The notes: generated by a model not told the origin, from the letters alone. Shown: positions 10,024-55,884, counted from the first letter of the stretch. The stretch is 64,000 bases of DNA from an uncultured virus (IMG/VR IMGVR_UViG_3300042731_005566) (IMGVR_UViG_3300042731_005566), one strand, 5' to 3'. A program made the numbers and translations.

Positions 10024-10035
10024 GCCCCGAGGGGC
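10024..10035 (+). promoter_or_regulatory. GCCCC-GA-GGGGC hairpin element (first of 15 copies)
   Basis: Copies at 10024, 10656, 13014, 13937, 38976, 40782, 41059, 42982, 45254, 49074, 49138, 51260, 51953 and variants at 54386 and 55855; all on the + strand, 13 of them 7-19 nt before a start codon. Confidence 0.75.
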
Positions 10036-10050
10036 GACGAGGAGTGGCAG

Positions 10051-10260
10051 ATGAGCAAAGCCGAGCCGAAGACCTGGAAGGAGCTGAAGGCGCAGGGCGT
10101 ACAGCGTTGCTGCGCAACGTTTACGGGAGGCAGGCAGTGTCGGCGTAGGGCTGTCGCCAACGGTTTCTGCCGGAAGCACCAGTGGGTCCACAAGACCGCG
10201 CACGACCTGAACAAGGCGGCGCTCGACTCCCTTGCGCTCGACGATGAAGAGGACAAGTGA
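10051..10260 (+). CDS. Small Cys/His protein (DUF5763-like zinc-binding pattern)
   Basis: RCCATFTGGRQCRRRAVANGFCRKH; GAGGAG RBS. Confidence 0.6.
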   Translation: MSKAEPKTWKELKAQGVQRCCATFTGGRQCRRRAVANGFCRKHQWVHKTAHDLNKAALDSLALDDEEDK

Positions 10261-10427
10261 TGAAGACCAGGAACAGGATCGAGCTGGAGGCACTGTCCAC
10301 GGCCCTCACTCAGTACATCGAGAACACCGCAGAGGACGAACTCGGTCACAACGACCAAGAGGAGCTACAGGCAATCAGATCCATGCTCGAACGGGTCAAC
10401 CTCGAACTCGTGAGAGTTTGGTGCTGA
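10260..10427 (+). CDS. Small hypothetical protein (55 aa; not in supplied ORF track)
   Basis: TGATG overlap with the previous gene; MKTRNRIELEALSTALTQYIE...VWC. Confidence 0.5.
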   Translation: MKTRNRIELEALSTALTQYIENTAEDELGHNDQEELQAIRSMLERVNLELVRVWC

Positions 10428-10442
10428 AGAAGATAATAAACG

Positions 10443-10649
10443 ATGCCACGGCAACACTGCGATAGCACCTGCTGGCACTGCGCAAGGCACTTCTTCGCCT
10501 GGCTGCGTGACCGCAATCGGCGCCCCAAGGACGGCCGGAGCGGCCCAGGCGACTTCTACGTCGAGGCTATCGCGAGCCGGCGCATCGCCGAGCTGGCTGA
10601 TGAGGCGGCTGCACTGGAGATTTTCGAGCGTCAGAGCAGTGTGCGATAA
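10443..10649 (+). CDS. Hypothetical protein
   Basis: 68-aa ORF in the co-oriented block. Confidence 0.5.
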   Translation: MPRQHCDSTCWHCARHFFAWLRDRNRRPKDGRSGPGDFYVEAIASRRIAELADEAAALEIFERQSSVR

Positions 10650-10679
10650 CAAGCGGCCCCGAGGGGCGATGGAGGAAAC

Positions 10680-11780
10680 TTGTCCAAGTATCTCATTCCC
10701 GTGTTGAACTACACACAAGCAGCCGCCGCGGTGGCCGCTGCCCTTCGCGCGAGGCGAACCGCACTGCTGCTAGGTTCGCCAGGCGTTGGCAAAACGGCCC
10801 TCGTGCGTGATGCTGCGGCCGCCATTGGGTTGCCTTGCCACGATCTGATCGCGTCCAACATGGACCCGACAGACGTCGCGGGGCTGCCATACCGCGATCT
10901 ACAGTCGGGTCGGGTGCTGCGCGAGCTGTTTCCCGAGATTCGGGCCGTCGTGGACGCTGCGGGTGTCTTATTCATCGACGAGGCGACCGCGATGCCGAAA
11001 TCGGTCGAGGGCCCGATGCTACGTGTTGCGATGGAACGCAACGCAGGCGGCACGCCGTTGCACCCGGGCAGCCCCGTAGTACTCGCGTGCAACCCGCCGG
11101 AACAGGCACCGGGCGGCATCGAGCTGTCGGCGGCATTCATCAACCGGATCGTGCTGCTTCGCTATCAGCCCTCATTCGCGGAAGTGCAGTCCTACTTCAA
11201 CGGTGAGGCGGTTCACGCTTCTCCCGTAGTGCTCGACGAGGACGCCTTCCAGGCCGCATGCGTTGCGGAGTTCGCTGACTTCGCCGCGACGCTTTCCCAC
11301 GCTACTGATCTGCTCGTTTATGATCCGCCGCGTGCAAGCGTTGATCAGGGCGAGCCGTGGGCATCCCCTCGCGGCTGGGAGATCGGCCTCTCCTGCCTGG
11401 CAGCGCATGGCGGTAAAGAGGATGACGTTGGCTACGCGCTCCTGACAGGTGCCGTAGGACCGTCCGCTGCTGGCGCGTACCTGGCAATTCGCAAGCTCCG
11501 TCTGCACCTGCCATCCATCGATGAGATCGCGGCCAACCCAACCAAGGCACGGCTGCCCGAATCGCTCGATCAGCAGATCGCTGCCCTGGGTCTCCTGGCC
11601 CGAGTCGCGCAGACCGATGTCTGGGCCGCGTGGACCTACGCGGGCCGGCTGCGGAAAGAGATTGGAGCTGCCTGCGGACGGTTCCTAATGAACAAGGTGC
11701 CGCAGGCCTCTAAGTTCGCCACCGTCGGGCGCAAAGCCCAAATCCAACTGCTGGCAAGAGTGCAGCGTGGGGCAGCATGA
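10680..11780 (+). CDS. MoxR-like AAA+ ATPase
   Basis: Walker A GSPGVGKT, DPTDVAGLP, Walker B LFIDE, ACN sensor and SPRGWE; GGAGG RBS with TTG start. Confidence 0.85.
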   Translation: MSKYLIPVLNYTQAAAAVAAALRARRTALLLGSPGVGKTALVRDAAAAIGLPCHDLIASNMDPTDVAGLPYRDLQSGRVLRELFPEIRAVVDAAGVLFIDEATAMPKSVEGPMLRVAMERNAGGTPLHPGSPVVLACNPPEQAPGGIELSAAFINRIVLLRYQPSFAEVQSYFNGEAVHASPVVLDEDAFQAACVAEFADFAATLSHATDLLVYDPPRASVDQGEPWASPRGWEIGLSCLAAHGGKEDDVGYALLTGAVGPSAAGAYLAIRKLRLHLPSIDEIAANPTKARLPESLDQQIAALGLLARVAQTDVWAAWTYAGRLRKEIGAACGRFLMNKVPQASKFATVGRKAQIQLLARVQRGAA

Positions 11781-13009
11781 CATCAGCGACCAGACAGCTC
11801 ATCCAGCGTGCCCGAGGGCTTTTGTTGGGCCTTGGTTGGCGACACCCATTCTTTGCTCTACCCGGTGCGAAGATCTACCTGCGTGTGTCCATCCACATCC
11901 AGACTGCTTGTGCTGACGTACGTGGATGCGTGTACCTCAATCCGAGTTTCTGCGATCAGCTCTCGGACAAGCAGCTTACCTTCGTTCTGGCGCACGAGAT
12001 CATGCATCTGCTGCTGTTTCACTTTGGGCGGCGAATGAACCGCAAGCCGTTCCGCTGGAATCGTGCCGCGGATCGCGCAATCAACTTCGGTCTCGTGCAA
12101 ATAGGGCTGGAAATGCCGCCCATGGGGTTACTTCCCACCGACCCGGCGCATAACGAGTACACAACAGAAGAACTCTACGAGGTCGAGGAAGAACAGCCAG
12201 GCGATGACGGTCAAGCCTCGCTGGGCAAGATGCCCGGAGCAACCGGTGGTTGTGGCGTGCTTCCACCTCAGGGTGGTGATGGCGATGGTGATGACGATGG
12301 CGCCGAGGGTGAAGCACCAGAAGACGGCGCGGCGTTTCCCTCCACAGCTGAGTCAGCACGGACCTGGCGGCAGCTTGCTCACAGCGCTGAGCAGAACGCG
12401 CGCTCGGCAGGCGACTGCTCTGGAGATCTGCTTGCACGCGTGCTCCGCGTTCCACCATCCAAAGTGGCGTGGACTGCGGTGCTACGCAACGCATGTGCAC
12501 GTGCAATCGCTGAACGCGGCAACGACGACGTTAGTTGGCAGCGACGCAACCGGCGGTCGTTCGCGGGCGACTTCATTCTCCCAGGTGGAATCACGTCCAA
12601 GGCACTCGTCGCTGTGGCGGTAGACACCAGCGGTTCTGTCTCTGACGAAGACCTCGAACAAGCACTCAGCGAGGTGGAAGCAATCAGCCGTGCGACGGGT
12701 GTGGCCATATTTCTGGTCACACACGACGCGGAGGTGCACTTCGCCGACTGGATCCGTCCCGGCACACGACGAGCTGCTCTCGCCAAGACTCTGATCGGTC
12801 GCGGCGGAACGCTATACACGCCTGCGTACGCGGCCATCGAGAGCGCCAGCAAGAAGTTCGACTACGCGATCCATCTGACAGACGGTATGCCGTGTGAGAC
12901 GTGGCCTGAACGGCCGCGCAACTGCCGTAAGCTGACCGTCGCCTTGATCGGTTACGCGAGCAGAAAAGAAATTCCTGAGTTCGCTGATGTCATCGAGATA
13001 GAAATCTGA
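11777..13009 (+). CDS. DUF2201-type metallopeptidase plus VWA domain protein
   Basis: HEIMH zincin motif, WNRAADRAIN, MIDAS DTSGS, GRGGT and TDG; typical partner of phage MoxR ATPases. Confidence 0.85.
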   Translation: MTSATRQLIQRARGLLLGLGWRHPFFALPGAKIYLRVSIHIQTACADVRGCVYLNPSFCDQLSDKQLTFVLAHEIMHLLLFHFGRRMNRKPFRWNRAADRAINFGLVQIGLEMPPMGLLPTDPAHNEYTTEELYEVEEEQPGDDGQASLGKMPGATGGCGVLPPQGGDGDGDDDGAEGEAPEDGAAFPSTAESARTWRQLAHSAEQNARSAGDCSGDLLARVLRVPPSKVAWTAVLRNACARAIAERGNDDVSWQRRNRRSFAGDFILPGGITSKALVAVAVDTSGSVSDEDLEQALSEVEAISRATGVAIFLVTHDAEVHFADWIRPGTRRAALAKTLIGRGGTLYTPAYAAIESASKKFDYAIHLTDGMPCETWPERPRNCRKLTVALIGYASRKEIPEFADVIEIEI

Positions 13010-13033
13010 AACGTCCCCGAGGGGAGAATAGAC

Positions 13034-13933
13034 ATGGGTTACAAAGCACGCACCAACAAGAAGGGCAACAAAGCAGGCAAAGCCAACAAGGCCAAGAAGC
13101 TACAACACGTAGAGCGCGCACCTTCGCGGGGCGCGCCACCGATCAAGATCCAGCCCGGGTATCTCGTGGTCTCGACGAGCAAAGTGACTGGCGGAATCAG
13201 TTACGACCGCGAGTACGGTGAGGAGCTGAGAATCAACGAGAACCAGGGTGTGCAGATCTCGCTGCATACAGTCAAGACCGTGGATCATGTCGAGATCGCG
13301 GCCGCGCTCGACGCGCTGAAAAAGAAGGCGGACTACGCTTTCAAAAAGCACTGTGCACACAGCGCATTCAACTGGTGGTACGCGGACGACGTCTCACTCA
13401 AAGCTCTGGAAAAGGAGATCGCCGAGCTACAACGCGAGGAACGTGTGCTCAATGCCGCAGCAAAGGCTGTAGGTTCGGCACGCCGCGCCCATATCGGGAT
13501 CATCGCCGGAAAGATCGATGTGGCGACACCGCTTGTCGCGGCTGAGATAGCGCGTACGATTTGTGACGTGCTTTCGGACGTGATTGCAGCGTTTCGTACA
13601 GGGCAAGTCAAACGCGTCCTCGATGACGACGGCAAGGTGATTCAACAGAACGCGCTACACGCGCCGTTGCTACGTTGCAAGAACCTAGACCGCCTTGCAG
13701 TCGGGACCGCCGGAGAAGCCGTGAAGATCGCGTTGCAGCACGTGCCGCATGTCCGAGCTGAGATCATCGAAGCCATCGAGAAAGATGGTATGGAGCCTGC
13801 TGAAGCAGGTGCACGCGTCGATCTCGAACCGTTCGAGAACGCTATCACATGGTTTGAGGAGGGCAGTATCGGCACCGATCTGGTAAGCCCTGATGAGGTT
13901 GCCGCCGCGTTGCAAGATGCGATGAAAGGTTAG
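13034..13933 (+). CDS. Hypothetical protein following the AAA/VWA pair
   Basis: 299 aa with Lys-rich N-terminus; preceded by the hairpin element. Confidence 0.6.
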   Translation: MGYKARTNKKGNKAGKANKAKKLQHVERAPSRGAPPIKIQPGYLVVSTSKVTGGISYDREYGEELRINENQGVQISLHTVKTVDHVEIAAALDALKKKADYAFKKHCAHSAFNWWYADDVSLKALEKEIAELQREERVLNAAAKAVGSARRAHIGIIAGKIDVATPLVAAEIARTICDVLSDVIAAFRTGQVKRVLDDDGKVIQQNALHAPLLRCKNLDRLAVGTAGEAVKIALQHVPHVRAEIIEAIEKDGMEPAEAGARVDLEPFENAITWFEEGSIGTDLVSPDEVAAALQDAMKG

Positions 13934-13955
13934 TCGTCCCCGAGGGGAGCGTGCC

Positions 13956-14681: not shown

Positions 14682-15040
14682 CTGATCGCAAGTTGGTAAT
14701 CGCTGCGTTGGCTACCACAATTGCCATCGCATCAGTAAGCGCGGTCGGGGTGGTCCTCGTGTATCAACAAAACGTCCAGCTCCAACAGAAGCTGCGTAGT
14801 GAGGCACATGAACGCGCTGACGCGAACGCTGTCTATGAGTTGGCGTGGCGTCAGCTGCTAGGGGTGCAGTTCCTGCTGATGGACTTGAAGGGAGACGTGG
14901 AGAGGGTGTGCAAACAGCACGACCCGGACGAGGTCGAGATACTCCTGCGTGCGCTCAAAGTGGCCGCGTTTCACACACAGAACTGTGACTTCGCCGAACT
15001 GGCTACAAGACAACAAGCCGTGGACGGGAGCACACCATGA
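14678..15040 (+). CDS. Membrane-anchored coiled-coil protein
   Basis: GGAGG RBS; N-terminal hydrophobic helix LVIAALATTIAIASVSAVGVVLVY. Confidence 0.6.
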   Translation: MTDRKLVIAALATTIAIASVSAVGVVLVYQQNVQLQQKLRSEAHERADANAVYELAWRQLLGVQFLLMDLKGDVERVCKQHDPDEVEILLRALKVAAFHTQNCDFAELATRQQAVDGSTP

Positions 15041-16329
15041 GCCGCGAACGAGACCGCCGCGCGCCAGGGGCACTACCCCATGCGACACCGCAACGTGGTG
15101 GCGGATCACCCGGCAAGCGTACGCGCGTGCAGGCGCGTTACGGCAACGTTCCACCACCAATGCTGCCGCGACCTGAGATCGCGCAAGCAACCGTTCGAGC
15201 GCAATCCTGGGACGGCGAGCCCAAAGACATCTCGAATCTTCGCGAGGGGGACCTCGTGGACGTCACACTGCAACTCGATAGCCCTGACTGGCGTGATATG
15301 TACGTGACGCCTTACGTTGTCGGTGCGAGTCCCGTACTCGAATCCATCGAGCACATGGCTCCCTGGGAGGGAACGCGTGACACGTACCACTTCGCGTTGC
15401 GCGCCACAGGAAAGCTGGGCACGGTTACCCCAAAAGCCGTGCTTGCGTTCAGCGGCACCGACGAAGACACCGAGTACGAGTTCATGGCCAGCTGCACGAT
15501 GGACCTAGCTCAGTTCGAGGATCAATGCCATGTCGCCTCAGAACACGCTATGCTGGCGTTCCATCGCATGGCTGAAATTCTGACCGCCGAGGGCGCAGCG
15601 TATTTCAAGGCGTACAAGCAATTCGAGACTGTGTTGGAGACGCCGCCTGATGACTCTCTGGCGGAAACGCTGCTGCTTGCCGCGCTCACACTGCTAGCCG
15701 GTGCTGGCGGTAGCACGGTTGGAAGTCTCCTCAAAGGTGGCAGCAAAGAGATTGGCCGCGTGGCGTTCGCGGACAGCATGAAGGACCTGGTGAAGTTCAG
15801 CATCAAGAAAGGCGCGGGCGATCTTGGTAGTGAGCCGCCGTCGCTAGAAGGGGGTCCCGCAGAGCCCTTCCAGTGGTATATGCACATGTCCGGTCAGCTG
15901 CACGGTCAAATGCAGTTCGTGCAGGAGGTCATCGACAGTTGGCGGCGTTCGGTTCGAGCGCATCGAATGCTCGCGGACTTCGATCCCGCGGTCGTCATTC
16001 AAACGCATTTGCAGTTTGACGGCGCACCTATGACTACTCGTCCGATGCCGGACGTGGCGCAGCTTGAACGCAGTTTCGAGCTTGCGATCTGGCAAGCGTG
16101 GTTGACTGACTATGGGTATGTCCTCGCGCGCTCTCCAGTATACGTTCCGCAGACCGGTCGTGGGGCGCTCACAGTGCAACAGAACTTCAACGACGCTGTC
16201 ATCGAGCGCTTGGACGCCCTGGGTGTTGATGGCGCTGCTTGGGTCGTACGCTTCAGTGGCCACGCGAAGGCTGCCGTAGAAAAGACGTTGAAGAAACGCA
16301 GCCTGGAAGAATACGAAAACAACCGTTGA
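15037..16329 (+). CDS. Hypothetical protein with disordered PGKRT N-terminus and a central hydrophobic helix (effector-like)
   Basis: 430 aa; SPGKRTRVQARYG near the N-terminus; LLLAALTLLAGAGGSTVGSLL helix. Confidence 0.55.
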   Translation: MSRERDRRAPGALPHATPQRGGGSPGKRTRVQARYGNVPPPMLPRPEIAQATVRAQSWDGEPKDISNLREGDLVDVTLQLDSPDWRDMYVTPYVVGASPVLESIEHMAPWEGTRDTYHFALRATGKLGTVTPKAVLAFSGTDEDTEYEFMASCTMDLAQFEDQCHVASEHAMLAFHRMAEILTAEGAAYFKAYKQFETVLETPPDDSLAETLLLAALTLLAGAGGSTVGSLLKGGSKEIGRVAFADSMKDLVKFSIKKGAGDLGSEPPSLEGGPAEPFQWYMHMSGQLHGQMQFVQEVIDSWRRSVRAHRMLADFDPAVVIQTHLQFDGAPMTTRPMPDVAQLERSFELAIWQAWLTDYGYVLARSPVYVPQTGRGALTVQQNFNDAVIERLDALGVDGAAWVVRFSGHAKAAVEKTLKKRSLEEYENNR

Positions 16330-16338
16330 GAGGTTGAC

Positions 16339-31271: not shown

Positions 31272-31658
31272 TCTGTGTCGTCATAATCGCAGCCGCGATT
31301 TTCTGGTACGCACTCATTCTGTGGTGTTGGTCGTATTGGGTCGGCGCGGGTCAGCGTGATGGTCGCGGGCTTACACCGACGAGTTGGTGGGCTGTGTTCA
31401 CGATGCCCTGGTGGACCGGACGTCTGTGGCTCGAAGTCCAGTGGACGTACTTCGTGGAGCGTCAAAGGGCACGACGGCACCTACGCAAGTTGGAGGCAAT
31501 GGAGCGTGACGCGCCGCCCGGCGTACCACCTGAGTTGATGCAGCGGCTACAAAGTGAAATTGATCGGCTACGCTGCCAATTCGATCCCGACTACCAGCGT
31601 GCTCAGTTGGCTACCAGACAATCTGAGCACCGTCAGGCCAATGTAATAGGATTTCGAC

Positions 31659-37553: not shown

Positions 37554-38612
37554 ATGTCCGAGGGAACCGACCTGATCCCGCGCCCACCCTGGCAAATTAG
37601 GCCCTCAGACGCTGCTCTGAGCCCCGATCTGCAAGACCGCCTAGAGGAGGCACTCCTGGCGTTCCGGCGCACCCTGGACTCCCCAGAGAGCGTACGCGGC
37701 TACCGTGACGACTGGCGCCGCTGGGTGGCTTGGCTCTCCGCCGAAGGGGTCCATCCACTGCACGCGCTGCCCCTGCACGTTCTGCGCTATCTCGTGAGCA
37801 TGCAGGACGCTGGCAGGGCGAAGACGACGCGCTCACGCGCACTGGCCGTGATCCGTTCGACCTACGCCGCGCTGGTAGTTGCGTTCTCGGAGGTGCCTGG
37901 GGTGCTAGACGCAAACCCCGCGCGCGAGGTCCGAAACATCAAAGTGGATCACGAGCCGAAGACGCCCTGGCTCGCAGAAGACGAAATGCGCCGTCTCCTA
38001 ATACGGCCGCCGTCAACCGCGCCGTGGGTAGAACGTCGCGATTGGGTTATCTGCGCCACGCTAGCAGGTACGGGTTGGCGTCGAGCGGAGATCGCACGCC
38101 TTCGTCGTGATGCGCTCCTCGACACCCCTGGTGGCTTCGCTGCGCAAGTGCACGCGAAAGGTGGCAAGGATGCCATCGTGCCACTTCCAGTTTGGTTGTC
38201 GCACGAGCTGGCGGAATGGTGCCAAGCCAATCGTATCGACGCAGGGCCAATATTCCCGCGACGCGAAGGCGCCGACGTGGCCGTTGGCCCCACGACAGTC
38301 AGGAACGCCGTGAAGCGATCAGCGGAACGCGCAGGGCTCGACCTGACACGCGCAACACCTCATGCGATTCGGCGTTCGTTCGCGACGATTACAGGTCAGC
38401 GTGGCGTCTCAATCGAAGATCGTCAGGCGGCGATGCTACATGCCTCAAAGGCGACAACAGAGCGCTACGACAAAGCGAGCAAACTGCCAGCACAAGCACC
38501 CGGCGAAGTGCTTCGCGATCTTGTCGAGCCATCGAATGGCGAAGCAAACGCCGCCGCATCAAATGACACGCAGCCAAAAACTTGGCCGCCGCGTCGAGCT
38601 GATTACGAGTGA
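37554..38612 (+). CDS. Tyrosine recombinase/integrase (XerC/D-like)
   Basis: N-terminal SAM-like domain; catalytic R (TGWRRAEI), K (AKGGK), HxxR (TPHAIRRSFAT), H and Y (MLHASKATTERYD). Confidence 0.9.
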   Translation: MSEGTDLIPRPPWQIRPSDAALSPDLQDRLEEALLAFRRTLDSPESVRGYRDDWRRWVAWLSAEGVHPLHALPLHVLRYLVSMQDAGRAKTTRSRALAVIRSTYAALVVAFSEVPGVLDANPAREVRNIKVDHEPKTPWLAEDEMRRLLIRPPSTAPWVERRDWVICATLAGTGWRRAEIARLRRDALLDTPGGFAAQVHAKGGKDAIVPLPVWLSHELAEWCQANRIDAGPIFPRREGADVAVGPTTVRNAVKRSAERAGLDLTRATPHAIRRSFATITGQRGVSIEDRQAAMLHASKATTERYDKASKLPAQAPGEVLRDLVEPSNGEANAAASNDTQPKTWPPRRADYE

Positions 38613-38860
38613 AATGTATCGTCAGGATAGACGGGTGAGACTTGCTCAACGGCGTCCAGCGCAGCGCGGCGAACCGCTGCCCACGCCGCGGTGTAGCCCT
38701 CTCGCCATCCTGCGTCCTCGCCTGACGCGACGATGCCGAGACCGTGGCGTAGTAGATCGCGGAGCGCAGCAGACAGGGATATGCCGCGGGTCTGCGCATG
38801 CTGTACCAGGTACGTGTGTAGCTCGTCGTCAAGAAGCACGTTGATGTGGTGTGACGCCAT
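38603..38860 (-). CDS. Ribbon-helix-helix regulator, copy 2
   Basis: HINVLLDDELHTYLVQHAQTRGISLSAALRDLLR; WREGYTAA matches WREAYTAA of 9685..9936; TTTACA-17 nt-TAGCAT promoter 6 nt before the ATG on the minus strand. Confidence 0.7.
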   Translation of the reverse strand: MASHHINVLLDDELHTYLVQHAQTRGISLSAALRDLLRHGLGIVASGEDAGWREGYTAAWAAVRRAALDAVEQVSPVYPDDTFHS

Positions 38861-38898: not shown

Positions 38899-38914
38899 GA
38901 TCGCGGATGCGATT
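38899..38914. promoter_or_regulatory. Operator-like palindrome (copy 3) GATCGCGGATGCGATT
   Basis: 14/16 match to copies 1 and 2; lies in the divergent gap next to the RHH promoter. Confidence 0.5.
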
Positions 38915-39001
38915 TTCTTGAAGATTCGGAGGGTGCCAGCGTCCAAGTTGTGGAGGCGCTAAGAGCGCCACTACGGACCCCGAGGGGTCGAATGGGATAG
39001 G

Positions 39002-39253
39002 ATGATGAAGCTCAGCAAGCCGCAAGAGAGATTCCTGTTAGTGCTGGAGGCGTGCTCGACAAGCGTACCTCCGGCGGACGGACAGCGGGACGCTGGGCGG
39101 CGCTGTAGCGCCTGGCACCGGACGGCTGAGAGCCTCCGAGACCGTGGCCTGGTGCACGTACGCCGTAAAGGCAACGGGTACGTGGCTACCCTCACGCCGC
39201 TCGGTCAGCAGTGGCTGAAGAGCCGCTGGAACCGTGCGGAGGATCTCGCATGA
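39002..39253 (+). CDS. Small winged-helix-like protein
   Basis: TAESLRDRGLV...ATLTPLG pattern; follows the hairpin element. Confidence 0.55.
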   Translation: MMKLSKPQERFLLVLEACSTSVPPADGQRDAGRRCSAWHRTAESLRDRGLVHVRRKGNGYVATLTPLGQQWLKSRWNRAEDLA

Positions 39254-40534: not shown

Positions 40535-40774
40535 ATGAACGACGCCACAACCAAGCTCAAAGTACGTGTGCACAAAGCACTCGATACCCTCCTGCATGAC
40601 GTGCTCAAGAACGTGTCCGTGAGTGACGAGCTACAGGTGCGTCTCGTTGTGACACTCGCGATCCGTGAGTGGACGCTCACACAAGTAGACTACCTGACCA
40701 AATCCCAGACGCTGATCGACGCGTACAAAGAGAAGCGTGACCGCGAAGTAGCAGATAACTGTCCACCGAAGTGA
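40535..40774 (+). CDS. Hypothetical protein
   Basis: ORF ends inside the 57-bp direct repeat. Confidence 0.5.
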   Translation: MNDATTKLKVRVHKALDTLLHDVLKNVSVSDELQVRLVVTLAIREWTLTQVDYLTKSQTLIDAYKEKRDREVADNCPPK

Positions 40775-41090
40775 TCGAACGGCCCCGAGGGGTGAAAAGG
40801 ATCAACGATGAAACATAACATCCTGTACGTCGTCACCTACCGCACGCCGCACCTACCAGGCGTTGCTATCGTGTACGCAGCGTCGCCCGCTGAAGCGGTT
40901 GCGCTGGCACGCAGCGCGCCCGATCCAAACGACCCGAACTGCAAGCTGGAGCGTGAAGACCTCGACGTTGAGCCGCTCACCAAATCAGATAGCTCGGCTG
41001 TCCTCTACGACTTCTGCCACGAGGAGTAGTACAAACTGTCCACCGAAGTGATCGAACGGCCCCGAGGGGCAAAAAGGATCAACGATGAAA
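40757..41090 (+). repeat. 57-bp direct repeat (40757-40813 and 41034-41090) flanking a small gene
   Basis: 55/57 identical; each copy holds the hairpin, an AAAAGGA RBS and ATGAAA. Confidence 0.9.
40808..41029 (+). CDS. Small hypothetical protein between direct repeats
   Basis: RBS and start supplied by repeat copy 1. Confidence 0.6.
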   Translation: MKHNILYVVTYRTPHLPGVAIVYAASPAEAVALARSAPDPNDPNCKLEREDLDVEPLTKSDSSAVLYDFCHEE

Positions 41091-41249
41091 TCCGTAGCAT
41101 TGGACCTCGATATTCACGAAGCGAACGCGCTAATCGCGCTGCTTTCTGTGGCCGCGGACGATGACCTGGAGACTCTTGCGCGACTGCTCGCAGTACGCAA
41201 CCGGCTTCGACAGCTCACTAGGTGGGCGCAACGCTAGGGAGCCTAATCG

Positions 41250-42731: not shown

Positions 42732-43005
42732 AACGCTGCGGCGTCTGCAAGAACTGCGTAGAGCTGGCGAAGGTGCAACGGTCGGTGCTGCGTGTTGTGA
42801 ACCCGCCCTTCTCACACGCCGACGATGACGCTGTGAGGCTCTGGAACGCCGAGCTGGAGAAGCTGCCGTGCCTCAAGGAGACTGAGCGATTCGAGCACTC
42901 CGGGCGAGCCCATTAAGCGGTAAGTATTCAACGGGTTACGCTGGTGAATAACACAGCAGCACACCGCGTCGAACACGAAAGGCCCCGAGGGGCACTGGGA
43001 AAGCT

Positions 43006-43251: not shown

Positions 43252-44145
43252 ATGCGGAGGTTTGATATGCGGTTTGCTATCTGTAGTACGATTTGCACTG
43301 TCTGTGCGTGCAGTACGGACACACTTGCTACGGATGTGGACGCGGCATTTGTAGACGCTGGCACAGACGACGCGGACAGTACAGACGACGCGGATGTTGA
43401 CGCGACCGCGGATGTTGACGCGACTATCGTATTGTCAGACGCACTATTCATCGTAGACGCAGCAGTGGATGCTGTGTTGTCGCCGGATGCCGACGTGCCG
43501 CCGGATGCAGTACTGCCACCGGATGCTGCTCCACTACCGGATGCGTATGCTTCACCGGATGCGTATGCTTCACCGGATGCATATGCTTCACCAGATGCGT
43601 ATGTTCCTCCGGCGGACGCTATTGCGCTTCCAGATGCAGTACCGCCGTCAGACGCGTACGTACCGCTGCCAGACGCGTACGTACCGCCGCCAGAGCCCTG
43701 GAATCCACTCCCCGAGCACTTCGACGTGGTCTGGACTTACACTGGCAACTGCGCGGGAGACCCGATTCCGGCGAACGGAATTTTCGACTTCCGTGACTAT
43801 ACGGAGCTGACCGTTATCGACCACGGTTACGAGAATATCGATATGGTCTTCTCGAAGCCAGGTAGTAGCAGCAGCAAGTACTTCGACGCGGAGCTATTTG
43901 TTGGATGGGAGTTCGAGTGGGACGTCGAGGAAGCGTACCTTCGGCCGTTTTCCAATGGCGCGTGTCCGTGGCTTCCATCCACGATCCGATTTGCTGCACA
44001 CACAGCCGAACAAGTCTCGGACACACAGCTCGTAGGAGAGTCCCGTGTGATCGGCTGGACGATTTGTTTTCCCGCAGGGCAGCCGCCCGGCACGCCACCT
44101 GGGTGCCGCAACGACTGGCAGTACGTTGCTACTGTAGCTCCGTGA
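43252..44145 (+). CDS. Secreted/lipoprotein-like protein with PDA low-complexity repeats
   Basis: VCAC lipobox-like signal; (P)PDA(Y/V) repeats including an 18-nt unit x3. Confidence 0.65.
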   Translation: MRRFDMRFAICSTICTVCACSTDTLATDVDAAFVDAGTDDADSTDDADVDATADVDATIVLSDALFIVDAAVDAVLSPDADVPPDAVLPPDAAPLPDAYASPDAYASPDAYASPDAYVPPADAIALPDAVPPSDAYVPLPDAYVPPPEPWNPLPEHFDVVWTYTGNCAGDPIPANGIFDFRDYTELTVIDHGYENIDMVFSKPGSSSSKYFDAELFVGWEFEWDVEEAYLRPFSNGACPWLPSTIRFAAHTAEQVSDTQLVGESRVIGWTICFPAGQPPGTPPGCRNDWQYVATVAP

Positions 44146-45219: not shown

Positions 45220-45278
45220 GAGAAGGCCCAAGACCAAGAACCGACGACCGACGGCCCCGAGGGGCGAGGAGAACATCG

Positions 45279-48589: not shown

Positions 48590-49087
48590 ATGCCGATGGG
48601 AGAAGGCTTCTGGATTCATTCGCGGAGCGGGCGCTGGGAGCCCGTCTACGAGCACCTGGACGCGATCCTCGAAGATCCGTCAACGTATGGCTTGTCCGAA
48701 ATCCAGGTCAGGATGAAGCGTGGTGAGAGCGCTGAGGACCGCCGCGAGCGAGTGCTGGTCGCCGCGATGAAGAAAGGCTGGATCCGTGCCCGGAGCCACC
48801 GAGGCTACACGGTGTTCGAGTACTGGACACTCAACCGAAGAATCGCAGACGCGATTTTTGACTTCATCGTTGAGGTGCTCGGTGCGGGGCCTGCGGCAAG
48901 CTACCAGCTCAACGAGATCCGCAGTGGACGTGGTTTCAGCGTCAACGCGCGGGACTTCTACGATCAAGTCGAGGCACAGCTCGCAGGCGCGTGCGCTGAT
49001 CCCGAAGATGCTGGTGGTGAGACGCTCTATCTGCTAGGGTGCGCCATGGGTCAGGGCCGCTGCGCTGACCACCACCCCGAGGGGTAA
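48590..49087 (+). CDS. Hypothetical protein
   Basis: GAGGAGG RBS; AMKKGWIRAR motif. Confidence 0.6.
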   Translation: MPMGEGFWIHSRSGRWEPVYEHLDAILEDPSTYGLSEIQVRMKRGESAEDRRERVLVAAMKKGWIRARSHRGYTVFEYWTLNRRIADAIFDFIVEVLGAGPAASYQLNEIRSGRGFSVNARDFYDQVEAQLAGACADPEDAGGETLYLLGCAMGQGRCADHHPEG

Positions 49088-49165
49088 ATCGCAAAAGGAC
49101 TTGAATACACGTGCAGTCAAGCCGTCTTTACCTGTGTGCCCCGAGGGGCTTTGAGGATTTCTGGA

Positions 49166-49529: not shown

Positions 49530-49550
49530 TACCGCGTCAGGGGGGATGCA

Positions 49551-50297: not shown

Positions 50298-50564
50298 ATG
50301 AGCCGACGGTTGGCAACCATCGCCCGCGAGATCAACGAGCACTGCTCGGGGATCACAGCCAAGATCGTGCAAGGTTACTGCGACACTGACCGCAAGATCG
50401 GCCGGCTGCGCGTACCGGGAAAAGGGCGCTACGGCAATCGCATTATCATTCACGACGACGCGACCGGCCGCGTGTTGTTTGACCATAACGCGGCGGAGAC
50501 GTACCGCTGCAATGCCGAGGTCGAGTACTGGCTCGCGGACTGGAAGCGCAGGAAAGGCCGATGA
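50298..50564 (+). CDS. Hypothetical protein
   Basis: Strong GC3 frame; FDHNAAETYR. Confidence 0.55.
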   Translation: MSRRLATIAREINEHCSGITAKIVQGYCDTDRKIGRLRVPGKGRYGNRIIIHDDATGRVLFDHNAAETYRCNAEVEYWLADWKRRKGR

Positions 50565-50625
50565 GCTACGGAAGCGCAGGAAAGGCCGATGAGCTACGGA
50601 AGCGCAGGAAAGGCCGATGAGCTAC
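50542..50625 (+). repeat. Perfect 28-nt tandem repeat x3 spanning a stop/RBS/start junction
   Basis: GGAAGCGCAGGAAAGGCCGATGAGCTAC at 50542, 50570 and 50598. Confidence 0.9.
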
Positions 50626-51171: not shown

Positions 51172-51207
51172 CAGTCTAACTACTCAAAACAGCACGGGTT
51201 TATTTTT

Positions 51208-51223
51208 GATCGCAGCTGCGAAT
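51208..51223. promoter_or_regulatory. Operator-like palindrome (degenerate copy 4) GATCGCAGCTGCGAAT
   Basis: TCGCAG/CTGCGA dyad after an AT-rich tract (GGGTTTATTTTT) resembling the copy 3 context. Confidence 0.4.
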
Positions 51224-51290
51224 ATCTGGCACGTCCACACGTCTGACTTTATGAGGACGGCCCCGAGGGGCAAACGGAGACAAGAAGACA

Positions 51291-51515: not shown

Positions 51516-51545
51516 GTTCACGGCTTCGTAGCCGTTAGGTAGACC

Positions 51546-51938: not shown

Positions 51939-51979
51939 CGTCAGTCAGCATGGCCCCGAGGGGCGAACGGAGGACCAAA

Positions 51980-53302
51980 ATGAGGATCGAGACCACTATC
52001 GAGGAGCCGTACGTCGATCATTGGGGCGCCATCGAAGGCATCCGCGAGATCGTCCAGAACGGCAAAGACGCCGAGACCGAATTCGGCGCCAAGCTCGTTG
52101 TGCGTTGGAGAAACAACGTGCTGCGCGTCGAGAACAACGGCGCTACGCTCGACAAGAGCGCTATCCTGATGGGCCGCACCTCGAAGCGCAGCCGCGCCGA
52201 TATGATCGGCAAGTGGGGCGAGGGCCTGCCTGTCGGCTGCCTCGCGCTCGTCCGTGCAGGCTACGAGGTCCGCATCCGCACCGGCGCTGAGGTCTGGATT
52301 CCGCGCGTCGAGGAGTCGAACAAGTTCGATGGCGCCCGCGTACTGGTTTTCGAGATCCTCAAACGCAAGCACCGCGACCGTGTGTGCGTCGAGATCCGCG
52401 GCGTGGACAAAGCGGAGTGGGCGACCATCCGCTCGCGTTTCCTCTTCCTGGCCCGGCCGAGGCCAAACGAGATCATCGAGACGGACTACGGCGACCTGTT
52501 GCTCGCTTCACGCTATCGCGGCGATCTGTTCATCAAGGGCATCTTCGTCCAGCACGACGATACGTTGACTCACGGCTACAACTATCGCAACGCGGACTAT
52601 GACCGCGACCGGCGCATGGTGGAAGATTTCGATAAGCGGAGCAACAACCGCCACATCTGGGAAGAGGCTGTTGCGCGCCGCCCGGACCTATTCCGTACCT
52701 ACTACGATCTTCTTACCGCAGGCGCACGCGACCTCGATGGCGTAACTCAGTACAGCGTCCCGTATATGCAGGACGCTGCCCTCGACGGCGTTGCCGAGGC
52801 GTTCATCGCGCAACACGGCGAGAAAGCCGTCCCCTGCGAAAACCTTGGCGAGTGTCAGGACCTGGAACATCTCGGTCGAATGGGCGTCATCGCGCCCGAA
52901 TCACTGCGCGCAATCGTCGCGCACAAGATCGGATCCGTGGAGACGGTGAAGGCTGCGCTGGCAAAAGAGGTCGTCAGGAAATACTCGTGGCATGAGCTGG
53001 ACGCCACTGAGCGCGCGCACCTGACCGCTGCCATCGAGTTGGTAGCAGCCGCAACTGAGTGCGCCCTCGCGGATGTGGACGTCGTGGACTTCCGCTCTGA
53101 GACCCTGCAAGGTCAATACAAGGACGGTCGCTTCGCTATCGCAAAGCGGGACCTCGCAGACCGTGATCTGACGCTCGAAATCCTCGTGCATGAGGTCGCC
53201 CACCGTGCTGGCAGTGACGGCGAGAAATCACACGTGGCGACCATCGAGAACATCTGGTCCAAGATCGTCGCAGCGCTCCGCAACCAACTGCCGAAGCCAT
53301 GA
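51980..53302 (+). CDS. GHKL (HATPase_c-like) ATP-binding protein with C-terminal HExxH
   Basis: IREIVQNGKD N-box, ENNG, MGRTSK, IGKWGEGL G-box; ILVHEVAH; GGAGG RBS. Confidence 0.75.
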   Translation: MRIETTIEEPYVDHWGAIEGIREIVQNGKDAETEFGAKLVVRWRNNVLRVENNGATLDKSAILMGRTSKRSRADMIGKWGEGLPVGCLALVRAGYEVRIRTGAEVWIPRVEESNKFDGARVLVFEILKRKHRDRVCVEIRGVDKAEWATIRSRFLFLARPRPNEIIETDYGDLLLASRYRGDLFIKGIFVQHDDTLTHGYNYRNADYDRDRRMVEDFDKRSNNRHIWEEAVARRPDLFRTYYDLLTAGARDLDGVTQYSVPYMQDAALDGVAEAFIAQHGEKAVPCENLGECQDLEHLGRMGVIAPESLRAIVAHKIGSVETVKAALAKEVVRKYSWHELDATERAHLTAAIELVAAATECALADVDVVDFRSETLQGQYKDGRFAIAKRDLADRDLTLEILVHEVAHRAGSDGEKSHVATIENIWSKIVAALRNQLPKP

Positions 53303-53610
53303 GCCGACCACCGACCACTGCTTACCTTCTCCATGTAGACGAGCACCCGAGTCATTGGGTCGCGTTCGTACCGTTCTGCACGAACCCCAACAATCGCCGG
53401 CAGTGGCTTTGGATGCGCACCGAGGCTTGCGCGCTGCTCGTTGCGTGCCCGAATTGTGGATCTACGCCAGGCATGTTGTGTCGCAGCGCTCGGGGATCTC
53501 CCTGGGGCTCAACACACAGCGCCCACCGCGACGCTTTCCGTAAGATGGTCAAGGACGACATCACGACCGTGCGAGCGTTGGCCTTCAAATTCAAGGTGGA
53601 AGGCGTCTGA
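53299..53610 (+). CDS. Phage zinc-finger protein
   Basis: ALLVACPNCGSTPGMLC...THSAHR. Confidence 0.6.
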   Translation: MSRPPTTAYLLHVDEHPSHWVAFVPFCTNPNNRRQWLWMRTEACALLVACPNCGSTPGMLCRSARGSPWGSTHSAHRDAFRKMVKDDITTVRALAFKFKVEGV

Positions 53611-53619
53611 GAACCCATG

Positions 53620-53649
53620 TTGGCATCTGTCACACGCGCCTGCTATAGT
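53620..53649 (+). promoter_or_regulatory. Sigma70-like promoter with extended -10
   Basis: TTGGCA-18 nt-TATAGT with TG at the extended -10 position; first obvious promoter upstream of the block that ends in the cas12-like gene. Confidence 0.5.
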
Positions 53650-53705
53650 AGGCGTCCACTCGGGCCGGAGGCCACAGAAACTACCAGCTCGACGAGGCAA
53701 AATCT

Positions 53706-54362
53706 ATGCGCTACAAACGAGGCGAGAGCGAAGAACCAGGGCTGCGTGAACGACGCGTATCGAGGACGACAGGAACGACCGTTTCGATCTACGACGCCGA
53801 CGAGCTGGATGCCCAACAACTAGCCCGCTGGAGGGGACAAGCACCCAAACACCGCTGGATCGTCTGCTGCGAAGATCACTGCACCGTAGGCAGCGTCCCA
53901 ACGCTTGCCGAGGCGCGCGCATTGCTATCCAGCTGCGGTTGGTGCTACGACTGTCGGCTCACCATGTTCGGCGCTGAGCTGCCTTGTGATGCTTGTGGCC
54001 GTCCCGTAGTGTGGTGCACGGAAGACGACATCACGCTCTGTGACGTCTACGATGTACACGATACGGCGTTGCTCGACGACGACGACGCACTGGTTGGCCT
54101 GCGTGTCGGTCACGCAATCTACTGCGATATGTGTGCTCCGCTGGCAATCCATGACCGGTGCCAAAACTGTGCGCGCGGCCCCGAGGCAATCACTCCGCAA
54201 GGTCCCGTACCGGTCCCGGTCCTGACAACGAGGTCTGAGCTTCCTGCGCTGTCCGCAGCAGGCCCCATCGAAGTGATAGACCTCGTACAAGCGCCAGTGC
54301 AGCCCGGAAGCTGGGCTGCGGTACTCCGTGCGGGGCTACAACATCGCAGAGGACGCAACTGA
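53706..54362 (+). CDS. Cys-rich hypothetical protein
   Basis: Multiple CxxC motifs. Confidence 0.55.
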   Translation: MRYKRGESEEPGLRERRVSRTTGTTVSIYDADELDAQQLARWRGQAPKHRWIVCCEDHCTVGSVPTLAEARALLSSCGWCYDCRLTMFGAELPCDACGRPVVWCTEDDITLCDVYDVHDTALLDDDDALVGLRVGHAIYCDMCAPLAIHDRCQNCARGPEAITPQGPVPVPVLTTRSELPALSAAGPIEVIDLVQAPVQPGSWAAVLRAGLQHRRGRN

Positions 54363-54405
54363 ACTGATTTCGATGGATAGCGAAGGCTCCGAGGAGCAGC
54401 GCATT

Positions 54406-54675
54406 ATGAACAACAACAAGCTGAGACCAACTGTCGAGGACGCTCACGCCGCTTCCAGGTGGGGATTTGCTAACACATTCACTGCTCGCTCGGTCGCCTT
54501 AGCGGTAGCGCAACGGCTCGGCCCCGATGACCGTGAAGGCGCTTGGTGGTACGCAAAGGTTCGGGTGTGTGCGCGAAATGCCCTTGAAGAGTGGCTACGT
54601 GAAAAAGTAATCGAGGCGGCCCCCCGATCAGGACAACCGACCGAATATCGATTCGTGAAGAAGGAGAGAACATGA
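54406..54675 (+). CDS. Small winged-helix-like hypothetical protein
   Basis: GAGGAG RBS within the hairpin variant. Confidence 0.5.
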   Translation: MNNNKLRPTVEDAHAASRWGFANTFTARSVALAVAQRLGPDDREGAWWYAKVRVCARNALEEWLREKVIEAAPRSGQPTEYRFVKKERT

Positions 54676-55496
54676 GGGCAATCGTATTGGCTGAGATCAA
54701 CAGTGACGGCACGCAAGGTGAGGTGCACACCTGCCGCGGCAGTGTGATCAAGATTGGAAAAATGAAACGCTCGGGGTTGAAGCTCAACCATCCTTCAGTC
54801 AGTCGGATGCACGCGGTGTTCGAGTGCGAGCCTGGAGGCATTGTCCACCTAGTCGATCTGGGTAGCGTGCAAGGTACGTTCATCAACGAGAAGCAGATCA
54901 ACAAAGCAGCCGTCAAAGTCGGCGACACGGTTCGTTTTGGTGACGTGATGCTCGCGGTTCGTGAGATTACGGACGAGGATGACACAGATGAAGCTGAAGC
55001 TGAAGCTGAAGCTGAAGCTGAAGCTGAAGCTGAAGCTGAAGCTGGTACCGCAGATGCAGCCTCTACAGGGCTCAGCGATCTCGCGGCCCGTATTGATCGG
55101 CTCAAACGTATCCGCAACATATACAGTGCAGGAGCTGCGCAGAGCAGCGCCGAGGTACCGAGCATAGGAAAGCTGGCCAGTACTGCCATCGTCCACAGCG
55201 TACTCGACGCCAACGCGCCAAAACAAATCGCTGACGTGATCAACGATGTCTGTGACAACGTTGCCGAGCTGCGCAAAATCGCGTCCGCTGACCGTGTTAC
55301 GCAAGCGCTGGACGGTCTCATCCAAGACTGGGCGCCTGTGTTGCAGGTCATCGGTAAGTACAGGGAGGCGAACGTCGAACGTACTGCGTTGTTCCGTGCC
55401 GGCTTGATCAAGAAGCTCAAGGACGAATTCGATCTGAGCGAGGCCAACGCAGTGGAGATCGTTCAATCAGCGTCGGAAACGTCCAACCTGACTTGA
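54672..55496 (+). CDS. FHA domain protein
   Basis: IKIGK...HPSVSRMHA...LVDLGSVQGTFIN...VGDTVRFG; (EA)9 linker. Confidence 0.85.
   Translation: MRAIVLAEINSDGTQGEVHTCRGSVIKIGKMKRSGLKLNHPSVSRMHAVFECEPGGIVHLVDLGSVQGTFINEKQINKAAVKVGDTVRFGDVMLAVREITDEDDTDEAEAEAEAEAEAEAEAEAGTADAASTGLSDLAARIDRLKRIRNIYSAGAAQSSAEVPSIGKLASTAIVHSVLDANAPKQIADVINDVCDNVAELRKIASADRVTQALDGLIQDWAPVLQVIGKYREANVERTALFRAGLIKKLKDEFDLSEANAVEIVQSASETSNLT
54990..55043 (+). repeat. (GAAGCT)9 microsatellite
   Basis: Nine perfect hexamer units, in frame. Confidence 0.95.
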
Positions 55497-55541
55497 GGAG
55501 AGATAGCGAAGACGCTATCGATGAGGAGGAGGAAAACGCTG

Positions 55542-55850
55542 ATGACAGATGATCCCGCACACGAATACACGGTTCCTGGCGGTGCTGCGGCAGCCCTCTC
55601 GACAATGCGCCCTGAGATGGCCCGTATCGTGGCCACACAGCTTCGTGAGGGCATCCTGCAACCGCTGTCGCCAGAAGAGCAAGCTGGCCTTCTCGACCTG
55701 GTAGCTGACCTCATTCAGCGTGTCAGCGATGACCAGGATCAACTCCGCGATATTCTACTCACGGTGCGTGGAATCCGCGAATACGGTAAAGGCCTACAAG
55801 GCATGTCGGAGAAGATCATTGCAGCTCTAGCTGCTTGCAACGTTGGTTGA
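55542..55850 (+). CDS. Hypothetical helical protein directly upstream of the cas12-like gene
   Basis: GAGGAGG RBS. Confidence 0.55.
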   Translation: MTDDPAHEYTVPGGAAAALSTMRPEMARIVATQLREGILQPLSPEEQAGLLDLVADLIQRVSDDQDQLRDILLTVRGIREYGKGLQGMSEKIIAALAACNVG

Positions 55851-55884
55851 ATGGGGCTCCGAGGAGCCAAGCAAAGGAGCATGT

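Follow-up and report, generated by a model that had tools for sequence, protein, structure and literature searches.

A strand-specific CGAG hairpin family beside gene starts in the genome of an uncultured virus

Why should a viral genome repeat one short GC-rich hairpin ahead of many of its genes, nearly always in the same orientation? The question is raised by a stretch of 64,000 nt from an uncultured virus (IMG/VR IMGVR_UViG_3300042731_005566; here called the phage). This whole stretch, hereafter the window, corresponds to positions 82,813-146,812, read on the minus strand, of one 146,941-bp viral record, and an IMG/VR contig from a wetland metagenome contains this DNA as well. A sequence-only reading of the window had described fifteen CCCC-GA-GGGG hairpins as strand-specific, covarying and adjacent to ribosome-binding sites, and had proposed that they define a regulon including a CRISPR effector; a translational operator, a processing or antitermination site and a phage-RNAP promoter element had been offered as possible functions. 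We followed this motif, CCCCGAGGGG, across the complete record, where it forms a discrete, base-paired family tied to gene starts, and the earlier interpretation is partly supported. Positions past the window edge are given as x, the window-orientation coordinate extended beyond it. Gene calls come from our own heuristic codon-score caller, and the counts of starts and gaps depend on these calls.

A discrete base-paired family tied to gene starts

The window contains 13 + strand copies and a single - strand copy of the motif CCCCGAGGGG, compared with 0.08 expected (100 shuffles, largest value 1), and across the 146,941-bp genome the count is 15 on + and one on -. The sequence-only reading had located all 13 + strand copies and had estimated well under one by chance, as the shuffles confirm, but it had missed the - strand copy (6226-6235). 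This antisense copy is distant from every - strand gene start and is probably non-functional. Two compensated variants, CTCC-GA-GGAG (CTCCGAGGAG), are also present genome-wide, both on +. We therefore define the family as 17 same-sense sites, 15 exact and two variant, with 15 in the window and two beyond it; they span 106 kb, and 11 fall within 17 kb of one operon. The fifteen alternative CCCC-NN-GGGG forms and CCCCGGGG are each found 0 or 1 times in the genome. Among perfect hairpins with a stem of at least 5 and a 2-nt centre, a GA centre occurs 39 times on + and 15 times on -, and each other centre 5-15 times.

The structure differs in one respect from that first proposed. A CCGAGG cap with a GA loop had been drawn; CGAG is indeed present at all 17 sites, but a 2-nt GA loop cannot close, and ViennaRNA predicts instead a 4-bp stem, in which CCC/GGG lies between a variable closing pair and the tetraloop CGAG. 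Folding energies of the 12-mers are -4.4 to -6.5 kcal/mol, and the hairpin appears in the minimum free energy (MFE) structure at 14 of the 15 window sites, with 3 bp at hairpin 45254. When the 17 sequences are aligned, every site keeps four standard pairs (columns 8-19, 9-18, 10-17 and 11-16). The closing pair 8-19 is GC at 11 sites, UA at three, AU at two and GU at one, the third pair 10-17 is CG at 15 and UA at two, and the next pair outward forms at just three of the 17. The single G..T closing pair, at hairpin 40782, can pair in RNA only. The covariation score is 0.249 against 0.101 +/- 0.026, a value matched by 0 of 500 shuffles and above all slid controls. The strand-specific, covarying element of the sequence-only reading is thus borne out, together with the flanks that it had listed (G..C at eight sites, T..A at 13014 and 13937, GA..TC at 38976, A..T at 49074 and G..T at 40782) and with its two stem-swapped variants, GCTCC-GA-GGAGC (54386-54397) and GGCTCC-GA-GGAGCC (55855-55868). 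Eight of the 12 positions are invariant across the 17 copies, and the unpaired flanks are biased too, with G at -1 in 14/17 and A at -3 in 10/17.

A covariance model built from the 17 sites, whose members score 20-31 bits by construction, was run on the whole 147 kb, both strands, with filters off. Non-members reached at most 11.5 bits and the antisense copy 17.3; as no other genome sequence exceeds 11.5 bits, the family is discrete, and the idea of weaker extra members was rejected, the model finding none genome-wide. For the 17 members, the orientation and gene-start bias seen in the window hold across the full genome. A look-alike one base shorter, GCCCGAGGGC, lies at window 11809-11818 within the DUF2201 open reading frame (ORF) and was not scored as a member by the model. 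A larger conserved structure around the hairpins was rejected as well, the 71-87-nt contexts having unremarkable z values of -2.3 to +1.2. At the duplicated sites 40753-40823 and 41030-41100 the hairpin is nested in a second, 5-bp helix, in which an upstream GAUC pairs with a Shine-Dalgarno-like (SD-like) GGAUC, and the SD is predicted to be masked by this helix. Searches of Rfam 15 matched 0 families. Intrinsic terminators (a stem of at least 5 bp, then a T run) were found at 0 of the 17 sites when 38.5-58 kb was scanned for them; the stems are followed by cga, aga, caa and similar letters. Long-stem versions of the motif with T runs are present in unrelated viral contigs.

Counted from the last base of the 3' arm, 15 of the 17 hairpins end 8-20 nt ahead of a start codon (14 ATG, 1 TTG). 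The window contributes 13 of its 15, in agreement with the thirteen first reported. In contrast, the upstream + strand stop codon lies 3-88 nt from the stem, indicating that the element is tied to starts and not to stops. All but one of the hairpins (16/17) fall wholly inside the non-coding 15% of the genome (codon-score calls), and nearly all window genes are on the + strand. Hairpins precede 14 of the 96 gapped (>=20 nt) + strand gene starts, compared with 0 of 37 such - strand starts. They stand 0-8 nt upstream of the SD or, at three sites, overlap it: at 13014, 13937 and 54386 the SD-like sequence lies solely in the 3' arm, as had been recognised from the sequence, and elsewhere a separate SD follows the hairpin. 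The reported clustering at 10-14 kb and 39-56 kb was recovered (Table 1). The reported absence from a "structural block" stands insofar as none of the 21 gapped starts at 14-38.9 kb has a hairpin, whereas the structural label itself finds no support in Pfam or PHROGs. The two distal + copies beyond the window are found ahead of helicase genes, one of the UvrD type (x = 80383) and one of the SNF2 type (x = 116585). The start-linked set thus comprises 17 genes and does include, as proposed, a CRISPR effector candidate, the Cas12f/TnpB-like ORF before a CRISPR-like array.

An upstream module and conservation in relatives

A second conserved feature is found in the upstream flanks, GAATA-N15/16-CGTC, which ends 10-16 nt before the stem. 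It is present at hairpins 42982, 49138, 51260, x80360 and x116560, and hairpin 10024 has TGTC. These six sites of the 17 match 8-9 of the nine module positions, against a background in which 0.2% of random genome positions reach 8; hairpin 51953 matches seven, and the remaining nine or ten do no better than background. With the strict form GAA[TC]-N16/17-CGTC, five of the six non-coding + strand matches in the genome have a hairpin next. Several module-less hairpins start 3-7 nt past a stop codon within operons, and the hairpin is therefore a unit independent of the module. If the module is a promoter, the hairpin would lie within the first few nucleotides of the transcript.

Promoters of extracytoplasmic function (ECF) sigma factors are described as having 'AAC' at -35, 'CGT' at -10, and CGTC with a 16 +/- 1 spacer (PMC3426412). 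Five of the six modules have CGTC and one TGTC, the GAAT-to-CGTC spacer is 16-17 nt, and the -35 is AAT, not AAC. The -10-like CGTC and the spacer agree with this description, but the ECF-sigma label is tentative, given the AAT at -35 and the lack of any sigma factor among the recognised phage genes.

Another palindrome, ATCGCG-NN-CGCGAT, is found in promoter-like regions in both orientations. It adjoins four modules, abutting GAATA at x80360, x116560 and 51260 and lying 6 nt before the GAAG version at 38976. Relative to the downstream gene, its centre reads GA at some sites and TC at others, which is the behaviour expected of a symmetric duplex operator, and we used it as an internal control. 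Unlike this palindrome, the hairpin has its GA centre in the gene's sense at 17 of 17 sites. ATCGCG-NN-CGCGAT is probably a duplex operator, and the ribbon-helix-helix (RHH) proteins of the phage (Table 1) are perhaps its readers.

Relatives carry the hairpin before other genes. A composite scan (module plus CCCCGAGGGG) of viral contigs retrieved five sites in the phage itself and matches in two further contigs, one of which looks like chance. The other is a 29-kb fragment (G007; 53% G+C), syntenic with x = 93.5-110 kb at 55-80% protein identity; it has GCCCCGAGGGGC twice on the gene strand, each copy followed by an SD and ATG and the second preceded by GAATA-N15-CGTC. Among metagenome contigs the composite scan gave 46 matches, of which ~39 were judged by eye, from closing pair, SD and start, to be chance, coding or terminator-like. 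A relative of G007 (87-95% identical; Ga0208375_1001726, L242) has three hairpin sites, and a ~977-bp segment in it, between matches to G007 26567 and 26581, holds module, hairpin and a 53-codon ORF and is absent from G007. A 3.85-kb metagenome contig has one composite site ahead of a 256-codon ORF, and one further metagenome match is uncertain. Relatives contain an identical GCCCCGAGGGGC before SD and start at six sites, four with the module, and the 12-mer is the same in all seven copies from relatives. For the genes behind these hairpins (L7/L12-C-like, ParB-HTH-like and unknowns), tblastx gave no counterpart in this phage; the identical 12-mer before unrelated genes shows that the element is conserved as a unit while its cargo changes.

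Other searches returned less. A plain 15-mer scan of viral contigs gave at least 116 single matches, mostly coding (DGPEGL) or long-stem terminators, and the five records spot-checked from it showed no comparable multi-copy one-strand excess (1-8 copies; both strands in both multi-copy records). Eight genome loci reached through the 440-aa protein at 51980-53299 had no motif excess, and the 82% relative (P0002, on a 143-kb contig) was not recovered in the metagenome scan. With the primase-like alignment as query, the phage itself and G007 were the only matches. The RHH protein had no match in the G007 fragment, an uninformative result for a fragment 14% complete. In a phage database, the DNA of 38-46 kb gave four marginal matches of 96 nt, and the protein at 15037-16329 none. 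The reads of four DNA runs (short, low-depth contigs) had no hairpin difference among the differences listed and are uninformative.

Table 1. Hairpins, upstream modules, palindromes and associated features, in window coordinates (x, beyond the window).
Feature	Position	Strand	Context
Hairpin GCCCCGAGGGGC	10024..10035	+	16 nt ahead of ATG 10051, first gene of + operon; module upstream
Hairpin GCCCCGAGGGGC	10656..10667	+	6 nt past stop 10649; 13 nt ahead of TTG 10680 (AAA/MoxR-like ATPase)
Hairpin TCCCCGAGGGGA	13014..13025	+	4 nt past stop 13009; SD GGAG overlaps 3' arm; then ATG 13034
Hairpin TCCCCGAGGGGA	13937..13948	+	3 nt past stop 13933; SD GGAG overlaps 3' arm; then ATG 13956
Hairpin GACCCCGAGGGGTC	38976..38989	+	14 nt ahead of ATG 39002, first gene of long + operon; distal GAAG..CGTC module and palindrome 38900-38913 upstream
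Hairpin GCCCCGAGGGGT, G-U closing pair	40782..40793	+	15 nt ahead of ATG 40808; flanks duplicated at hairpin 41059
Hairpin GCCCCGAGGGGC	41059..41070	+	15 nt ahead of ATG 41085
Hairpin GCCCCGAGGGGC	42982..42993	+	13 nt ahead of ATG 43006; module 42946-42970 upstream
Hairpin GCCCCGAGGGGC	45254..45265	+	14 nt ahead of ATG 45279
Hairpin ACCCCGAGGGGT	49074..49085	+	overlaps last codons and stop of 48590-49087; no nearby start codon
Hairpin GCCCCGAGGGGC	49138..49149	+	past module 49103-49126; next starts GTG 49181 (14-codon mini-ORF) and GTG 49219
Hairpin GCCCCGAGGGGC	51260..51271	+	20 nt ahead of ATG 51291; module 51220-51243 and palindrome 51209-51222 upstream
Hairpin GCCCCGAGGGGC	51953..51964	+	16 nt ahead of ATG 51980 (440-aa GHKL/sacsin-like protein)
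Variant hairpin GCTCCGAGGAGC, compensated C>T / G>A	54386..54397	+	3' arm GAGGAG is the sole SD; then ATG 54406
Variant hairpin GGCTCCGAGGAGCC	55855..55868	+	18 nt ahead of ATG 55885 (Cas12f/TnpB-like ORF)
Antisense copy	6225..6236	-	within + strand ORF 6083-6553; 17.3 bits
Module GAATA-N16-TGTC	9987..10011	+	ends 12 nt before hairpin 10024
Module GAATA-N16-CGTC	42946..42970	+	ends 11 nt before hairpin 42982
Module GAATA-N15-CGTC	49103..49126	+	ends 11 nt before hairpin 49138
Module GAATA-N15-CGTC	51220..51243	+	ends 16 nt before hairpin 51260
Modules beyond window	x = 80322, x = 116522	+	ahead of the two distal hairpins
Palindrome ATCGCG-NN-CGCGAT, window	1675-1688, 5992-6005, 31286-31299, 38900-38913, 48842-48855, 51209-51222, 59151-59164		
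Palindrome ATCGCG-NN-CGCGAT, beyond window	x = 80307, 96417, 96657, 116500, 127693, 140782		
RHH (CopG-type) ORF	9685..9936	-	divergent from hairpin-led operon at 10051
Second RHH ORF	38603..38860	-	divergent from hairpin-led operon at 39002
Gapped + strand starts	9.9-14 kb	+	4/5 with hairpin
Gapped + strand starts	14-38.9 kb	+	0/21 with hairpin
Gapped + strand starts	38.9-57.5 kb	+	8/21 with hairpin
Gapped + strand starts	57.5-72 kb	+	0/16 with hairpin
Gapped + strand starts	beyond 72 kb	+	2/27 with hairpin

A leader hairpin with a reader, and its rivals

We favour, with a confidence that stops somewhat short of an even chance, a start-associated hairpin that is transcribed into the mRNA leader, where a sequence-specific factor would read it and co-regulate the translation or stability of early and accessory genes. 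Action in the mRNA leader is suggested because the element is base-paired and strand-biased, has a G-U pair, keeps a fixed distance to starts, and is represented at putative transcript starts as well as within operons. A sequence-specific reader is suggested because the loop and the three pairs nearest to it hardly vary, whereas compensation leaves the outer pair free to change, and because the 12-mer is kept in a diverged relative. An invariant loop and upper stem are the pattern of a protein reading both, and such a reader is therefore favoured over a purely structural role.

The motif itself, its strand bias, base pairing, link to starts and to the module, discreteness and conservation in relatives are shown; we infer that the hairpins are transcribed, that they meet a reader and that translation or stability is affected. 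The transcript would form a minimal 4-bp stem under a CGAG cap, with CCC/GGG (CUC/GAG in the two variants) inside the closing pair. The six module-linked hairpins would form the very 5' end of the primary transcript, and nine or ten others lie inside operons, directly past a stop codon. The most likely reader would be a phage-encoded RNA-binding regulator, with the two RHH paralogues as candidates on positional grounds only; its binding could either keep ribosomes from their binding site or make the leader more stable, and would thereby co-regulate early and accessory genes as a portable set. The Aca2 and Aca1 regulators bind leader hairpins by ribosome-binding sites, also between genes of one operon, and an RHH protein, Aca14, exists in a regulator role (PMC13551039).

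Several observations weigh against this proposal. No RNA-binding protein was identified in the phage, and none of the 23 sequencing runs listed with this DNA is recorded as RNA. The 4-bp hairpin is marginal, its 71-87-nt contexts show no unusual structure, and hairpin 54386 is not formed in the MFE. The adjacent hairpins 49074 and 49138 are exceptions to the start spacing, the next start after the latter being 32 nt (the 14-codon mini-ORF) or 70 nt (GTG) away. Copies in relatives all have a G-C closing pair and add no covariation. The motif was not found in 50 viral loci reached through the 440-aa protein (22-49% identity, the window's own record excluded), and the comparative depth is therefore small, at three lineages. 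The near-identity of the copies is also compatible with recent copying instead of a sequence-specific reader, and the place of the palindrome relative to a putative promoter, +2 to +16, is one that DNA operators classically occupy too. A more elaborate version of the leader-hairpin proposal must be regarded as unlikely when taken whole: a two-layer portable cassette, in which a dedicated GAATA-N15/16-CGTC promoter, served by an unrecognised sigma-like factor, would be coupled to the 12-nt leader hairpin and its RNA-binding protein, possibly RHH. Accessory genes, including the CRISPR-Cas12 effector, would acquire this cassette when moving, and one regulator would switch the mobile set translationally.

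The same hairpins could act through structure alone, protecting the 5' end from decay, insulating the ribosome-binding site from upstream sequence and masking the SD at three sites until a ribosome arriving from upstream opens the stem, so that translational coupling would result. This reading, which we hold to be rather unlikely, agrees with the covarying stem, with the six of 17 sites that lie 10-16 nt past a -10-like CGTC, where a transcript would begin, with the stop codons 3-4 nt before the stems of 13014 and 13937, whose 3' arms overlap GGAG, and with a CGAG loop on a C-G closing pair, which we take to fit the stable YNMG loop class. However, many stems and loops should then be tolerated, and yet two thirds of the hairpin is invariant at every site, the 12-mer is identical in a relative with proteins differing by 20-45%, the unpaired flanks are biased, and the stability is modest. 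A phage repressor, for example an RHH protein, could instead use the hairpin DNA as an operator at the six modules and as a roadblock within operons, in the way of the stoperators of mycobacteriophage L5. The 12-14-bp near-palindrome spans roughly +2 to +16 relative to the putative promoters, the two RHH genes (43% identity across 53 aa) diverge from two hairpin-led operons, and stoperators, which PMC3203893 mentions, are likewise intergenic, multi-copy and in one orientation. We nevertheless judge a duplex site distinctly unlikely: compensatory changes at two pairs are unexpected for a protein reading two identical half-sites, one copy has a G..T closing pair, the centre keeps the gene's sense where that of the other palindrome turns both ways, and a roadblock needs no tight spacing to start codons. 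Stoperators are 13-mers with neither symmetry nor pairing, which the repressor recognises as duplex DNA, whereas here the arms covary. A dual DNA/RNA reader, like Aca2, might merge the duplex-site and leader-RNA readings.

It is very unlikely, in our view, that the hairpin, as duplex or as an extruded single strand, is a promoter or start-site element for phage-specific transcription machinery, comparable to the hairpin promoters of the N4 virion RNA polymerase. The strict module matches followed by hairpins could be read in this way, and 38.5-58 kb shows no excess of sigma-70-like promoters (3 vs 4.9 expected). But nine or ten of the 17 hairpins have no module, several begin 3-7 nt past a stop codon in packed operons, and this division between module-linked and module-less sites favours a leader-RNA role over a promoter role. 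Moreover, the N4 promoter has its purine loop on the template strand, whereas here it is on the coding strand, and neither an RNA polymerase nor a sigma domain was found in any frame; the N4-type promoter itself was rejected, no RNA polymerase family matching any of 186 ORFs (Pfam, PHROGs), the largest of which, at 1032 aa, gave no match at all. Even less credence can be given to an antitermination site of the nut/boxB type, in which the nascent-RNA hairpin would load a factor on RNA polymerase. The lambda boxB is a GC-rich 4-5-bp GCCC..GGGC stem in an early phage transcript with a small phage protein as reader, which the hairpin resembles; a hairpin follows each putative promoter, and an early-type operon lies beside an integrase and a divergent small regulator. 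Nevertheless, boxB is found once in an operon, with no link to start codons, and its loop is a GNRA-like one of 5 nt, whereas the present loop is the 4-nt CGAG at every site, with no GNRA-like pentaloop, 11 copies crowd into 17 kb of one operon, and spacing is fixed to starts and not to promoters or terminators. No boxA-like or other conserved block was found within 90 nt upstream or 40 nt downstream, the module aside, nor clear terminators in 38.5-58 kb, and a lambda-type nut site, with its pentaloop and boxA partner, was rejected. A selfish or recombinational repeat with no regulatory role, whether a miniature of the repetitive extragenic palindrome (REP) or miniature inverted-repeat transposable element (MITE) kind or a cassette junction, is equally improbable. 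The ~977-bp segment with module, hairpin and ORF that is absent from G007, and the duplicated flanks of hairpins 40782 and 41059, point towards it. The boundaries of the segment in Ga0208375_1001726 are not at the hairpins, however, the unit is 12-17 nt with otherwise unrelated flanks, and one orientation with a fixed start distance would be left unexplained. No Y1/RAYT transposase was found (PF01797, six frames), and a REP/RAYT or IS200/IS605-type repeat, which has an imperfect palindrome of at least 20 nt with a conserved head and a Y1 (HUH) transposase, was rejected for a unit of 12-14 nt.

Genomic setting and kindred signals

The 150,001-bp IMG/VR contig and the 146,941-bp record are related by a circular permutation implied by the locus coordinates, which suggests a circular or terminally redundant genome. 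Pfam and PHROGs recognised an integrase, the two RHH ORFs and a MoxR-type ATPase with a DUF2201/VWA partner in the window and, beyond it, a PolA-UDG fusion, a ribonucleotide reductase, helicases of the UvrD and SNF2 types, DNA methyltransferases and a primase-like protein; neither a capsid nor a terminase gene was recognised, and a tRNA scan of the window found 0. The 440-aa protein has a GHKL/sacsin-like ATPase domain (phrog_6077). The Cas12f/TnpB-like ORF (55885-57468, +; Pfam) is followed, from its stop codon, by a CRISPR-like array at 57454-58830 (+), whose ~36-nt repeat is CCCGGAATGCTAGCTCGATGGCTACTCAATCGAGAC. Six units at 57454-57863 have a period of 71-75 nt and six further copies at 58280-58820 are irregularly spaced, with an ORF (57889-58221) between both groups; an 18-nt core of the repeat has 12 + strand copies vs 0 expected. 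Other repeats are three perfect 28-nt tandem copies at 50542-50625, in the gap ahead of GTG 50650, several 18-21-nt tandem arrays (43389-43694) in the ORF at 43267-44145, and the hexamer TGAAGC x9.3 at 54989-55044, within an FHA-domain ORF (54672-55496). Beyond the window, an 868-aa ORF (x = 103168-105774) has a major-vault-protein shoulder and repeat domains, and a 147-aa ORF (x = 130255-130698) an RF-1/PCRF peptide-release-factor domain.

Hairpins near transcript starts are familiar from other systems. The 5' stabiliser hairpins of the ompA leader and of SP82 early RNA also lie near the mRNA 5' end and upstream of the SD, but are single gene-specific structures, whereas here one sequence forms a 17-copy family. 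The promoter early stem-loop (PeSL) cassettes of T4-type phages join a promoter and a stem-loop between small early genes and travel with gene cassettes; in them, however, a terminator stem-loop comes before the promoter, whereas here the hairpin is downstream of the module and beside the SD. Stoperators share with the hairpins the many short intergenic sites, the single orientation relative to transcription and the spread through operons. The leader motifs of Aca1 and Aca2 in anti-CRISPR operons are closer: they too are hairpins in a 5' untranslated region or between genes, beside a ribosome-binding site, they are paired with a promoter-level DNA site, and accessory genes are co-regulated through them by a small protein with a DNA-binding fold. 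In contrast to those motifs, the present family has 17 copies over 106 kb, and the promoter palindrome ATCGCG-NN-CGCGAT is unlike the hairpin in sequence. Neither an aca-type helix-turn-helix (HTH) gene nor a known acr gene was recognised here, the nearby matches being only RHH and weak winged-HTH.

The other close parallel is the start-associated sequence (SAS) of Cluster K mycobacteriophages, and our literature search on repeated hairpins upstream of the SD in phage genomes found nothing closer than the SAS and Aca papers. According to Pope et al. (2011, PMC3203893), the SAS has 11-19 copies per genome, nearly all in one orientation with a single stray on the other strand; SAS and extended SAS (ESAS) are confined to the non-structural part of the genome, directly upstream of unrelated start codons, the SAS is conserved across subclusters, a trans-acting reader is suspected, and no support was found for pairing of the ESAS. 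A 2025 paper still gives the function as unknown (PMC12699233). The hairpin family is also multi-copy and in one orientation (17 sense, 1 antisense), with 0 copies before - strand genes, which is shared behaviour and not membership. As described, the SAS is a non-palindromic 13-mer, GGGATAGGAGCCC, which contains the SD and lies 3-7 bp from the start codon; this 13-mer has 0 matches in the window on both strands at up to two mismatches. The hairpin, in contrast, is base-paired and covarying, leaves 8-20 nt between itself and the start in 15 of the 17 cases and has the SD inside in just three. It is therefore a start-associated phage signal like the SAS in its behaviour, with a structural basis that the SAS lacks, and membership fails on sequence, position and structure.

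Repeats at phage gene starts have been known since 2011 through the SAS, their function being open, and the present family is a cleaner case: base-paired, discrete, conserved and linked to a module. It would serve as a marker for co-regulated early and accessory genes, here including a phage CRISPR effector, and the hairpin itself is a candidate 12-nt operator or stabiliser part. More broadly, it offers a tractable handle on the post-transcriptional regulons of uncultured large phages.

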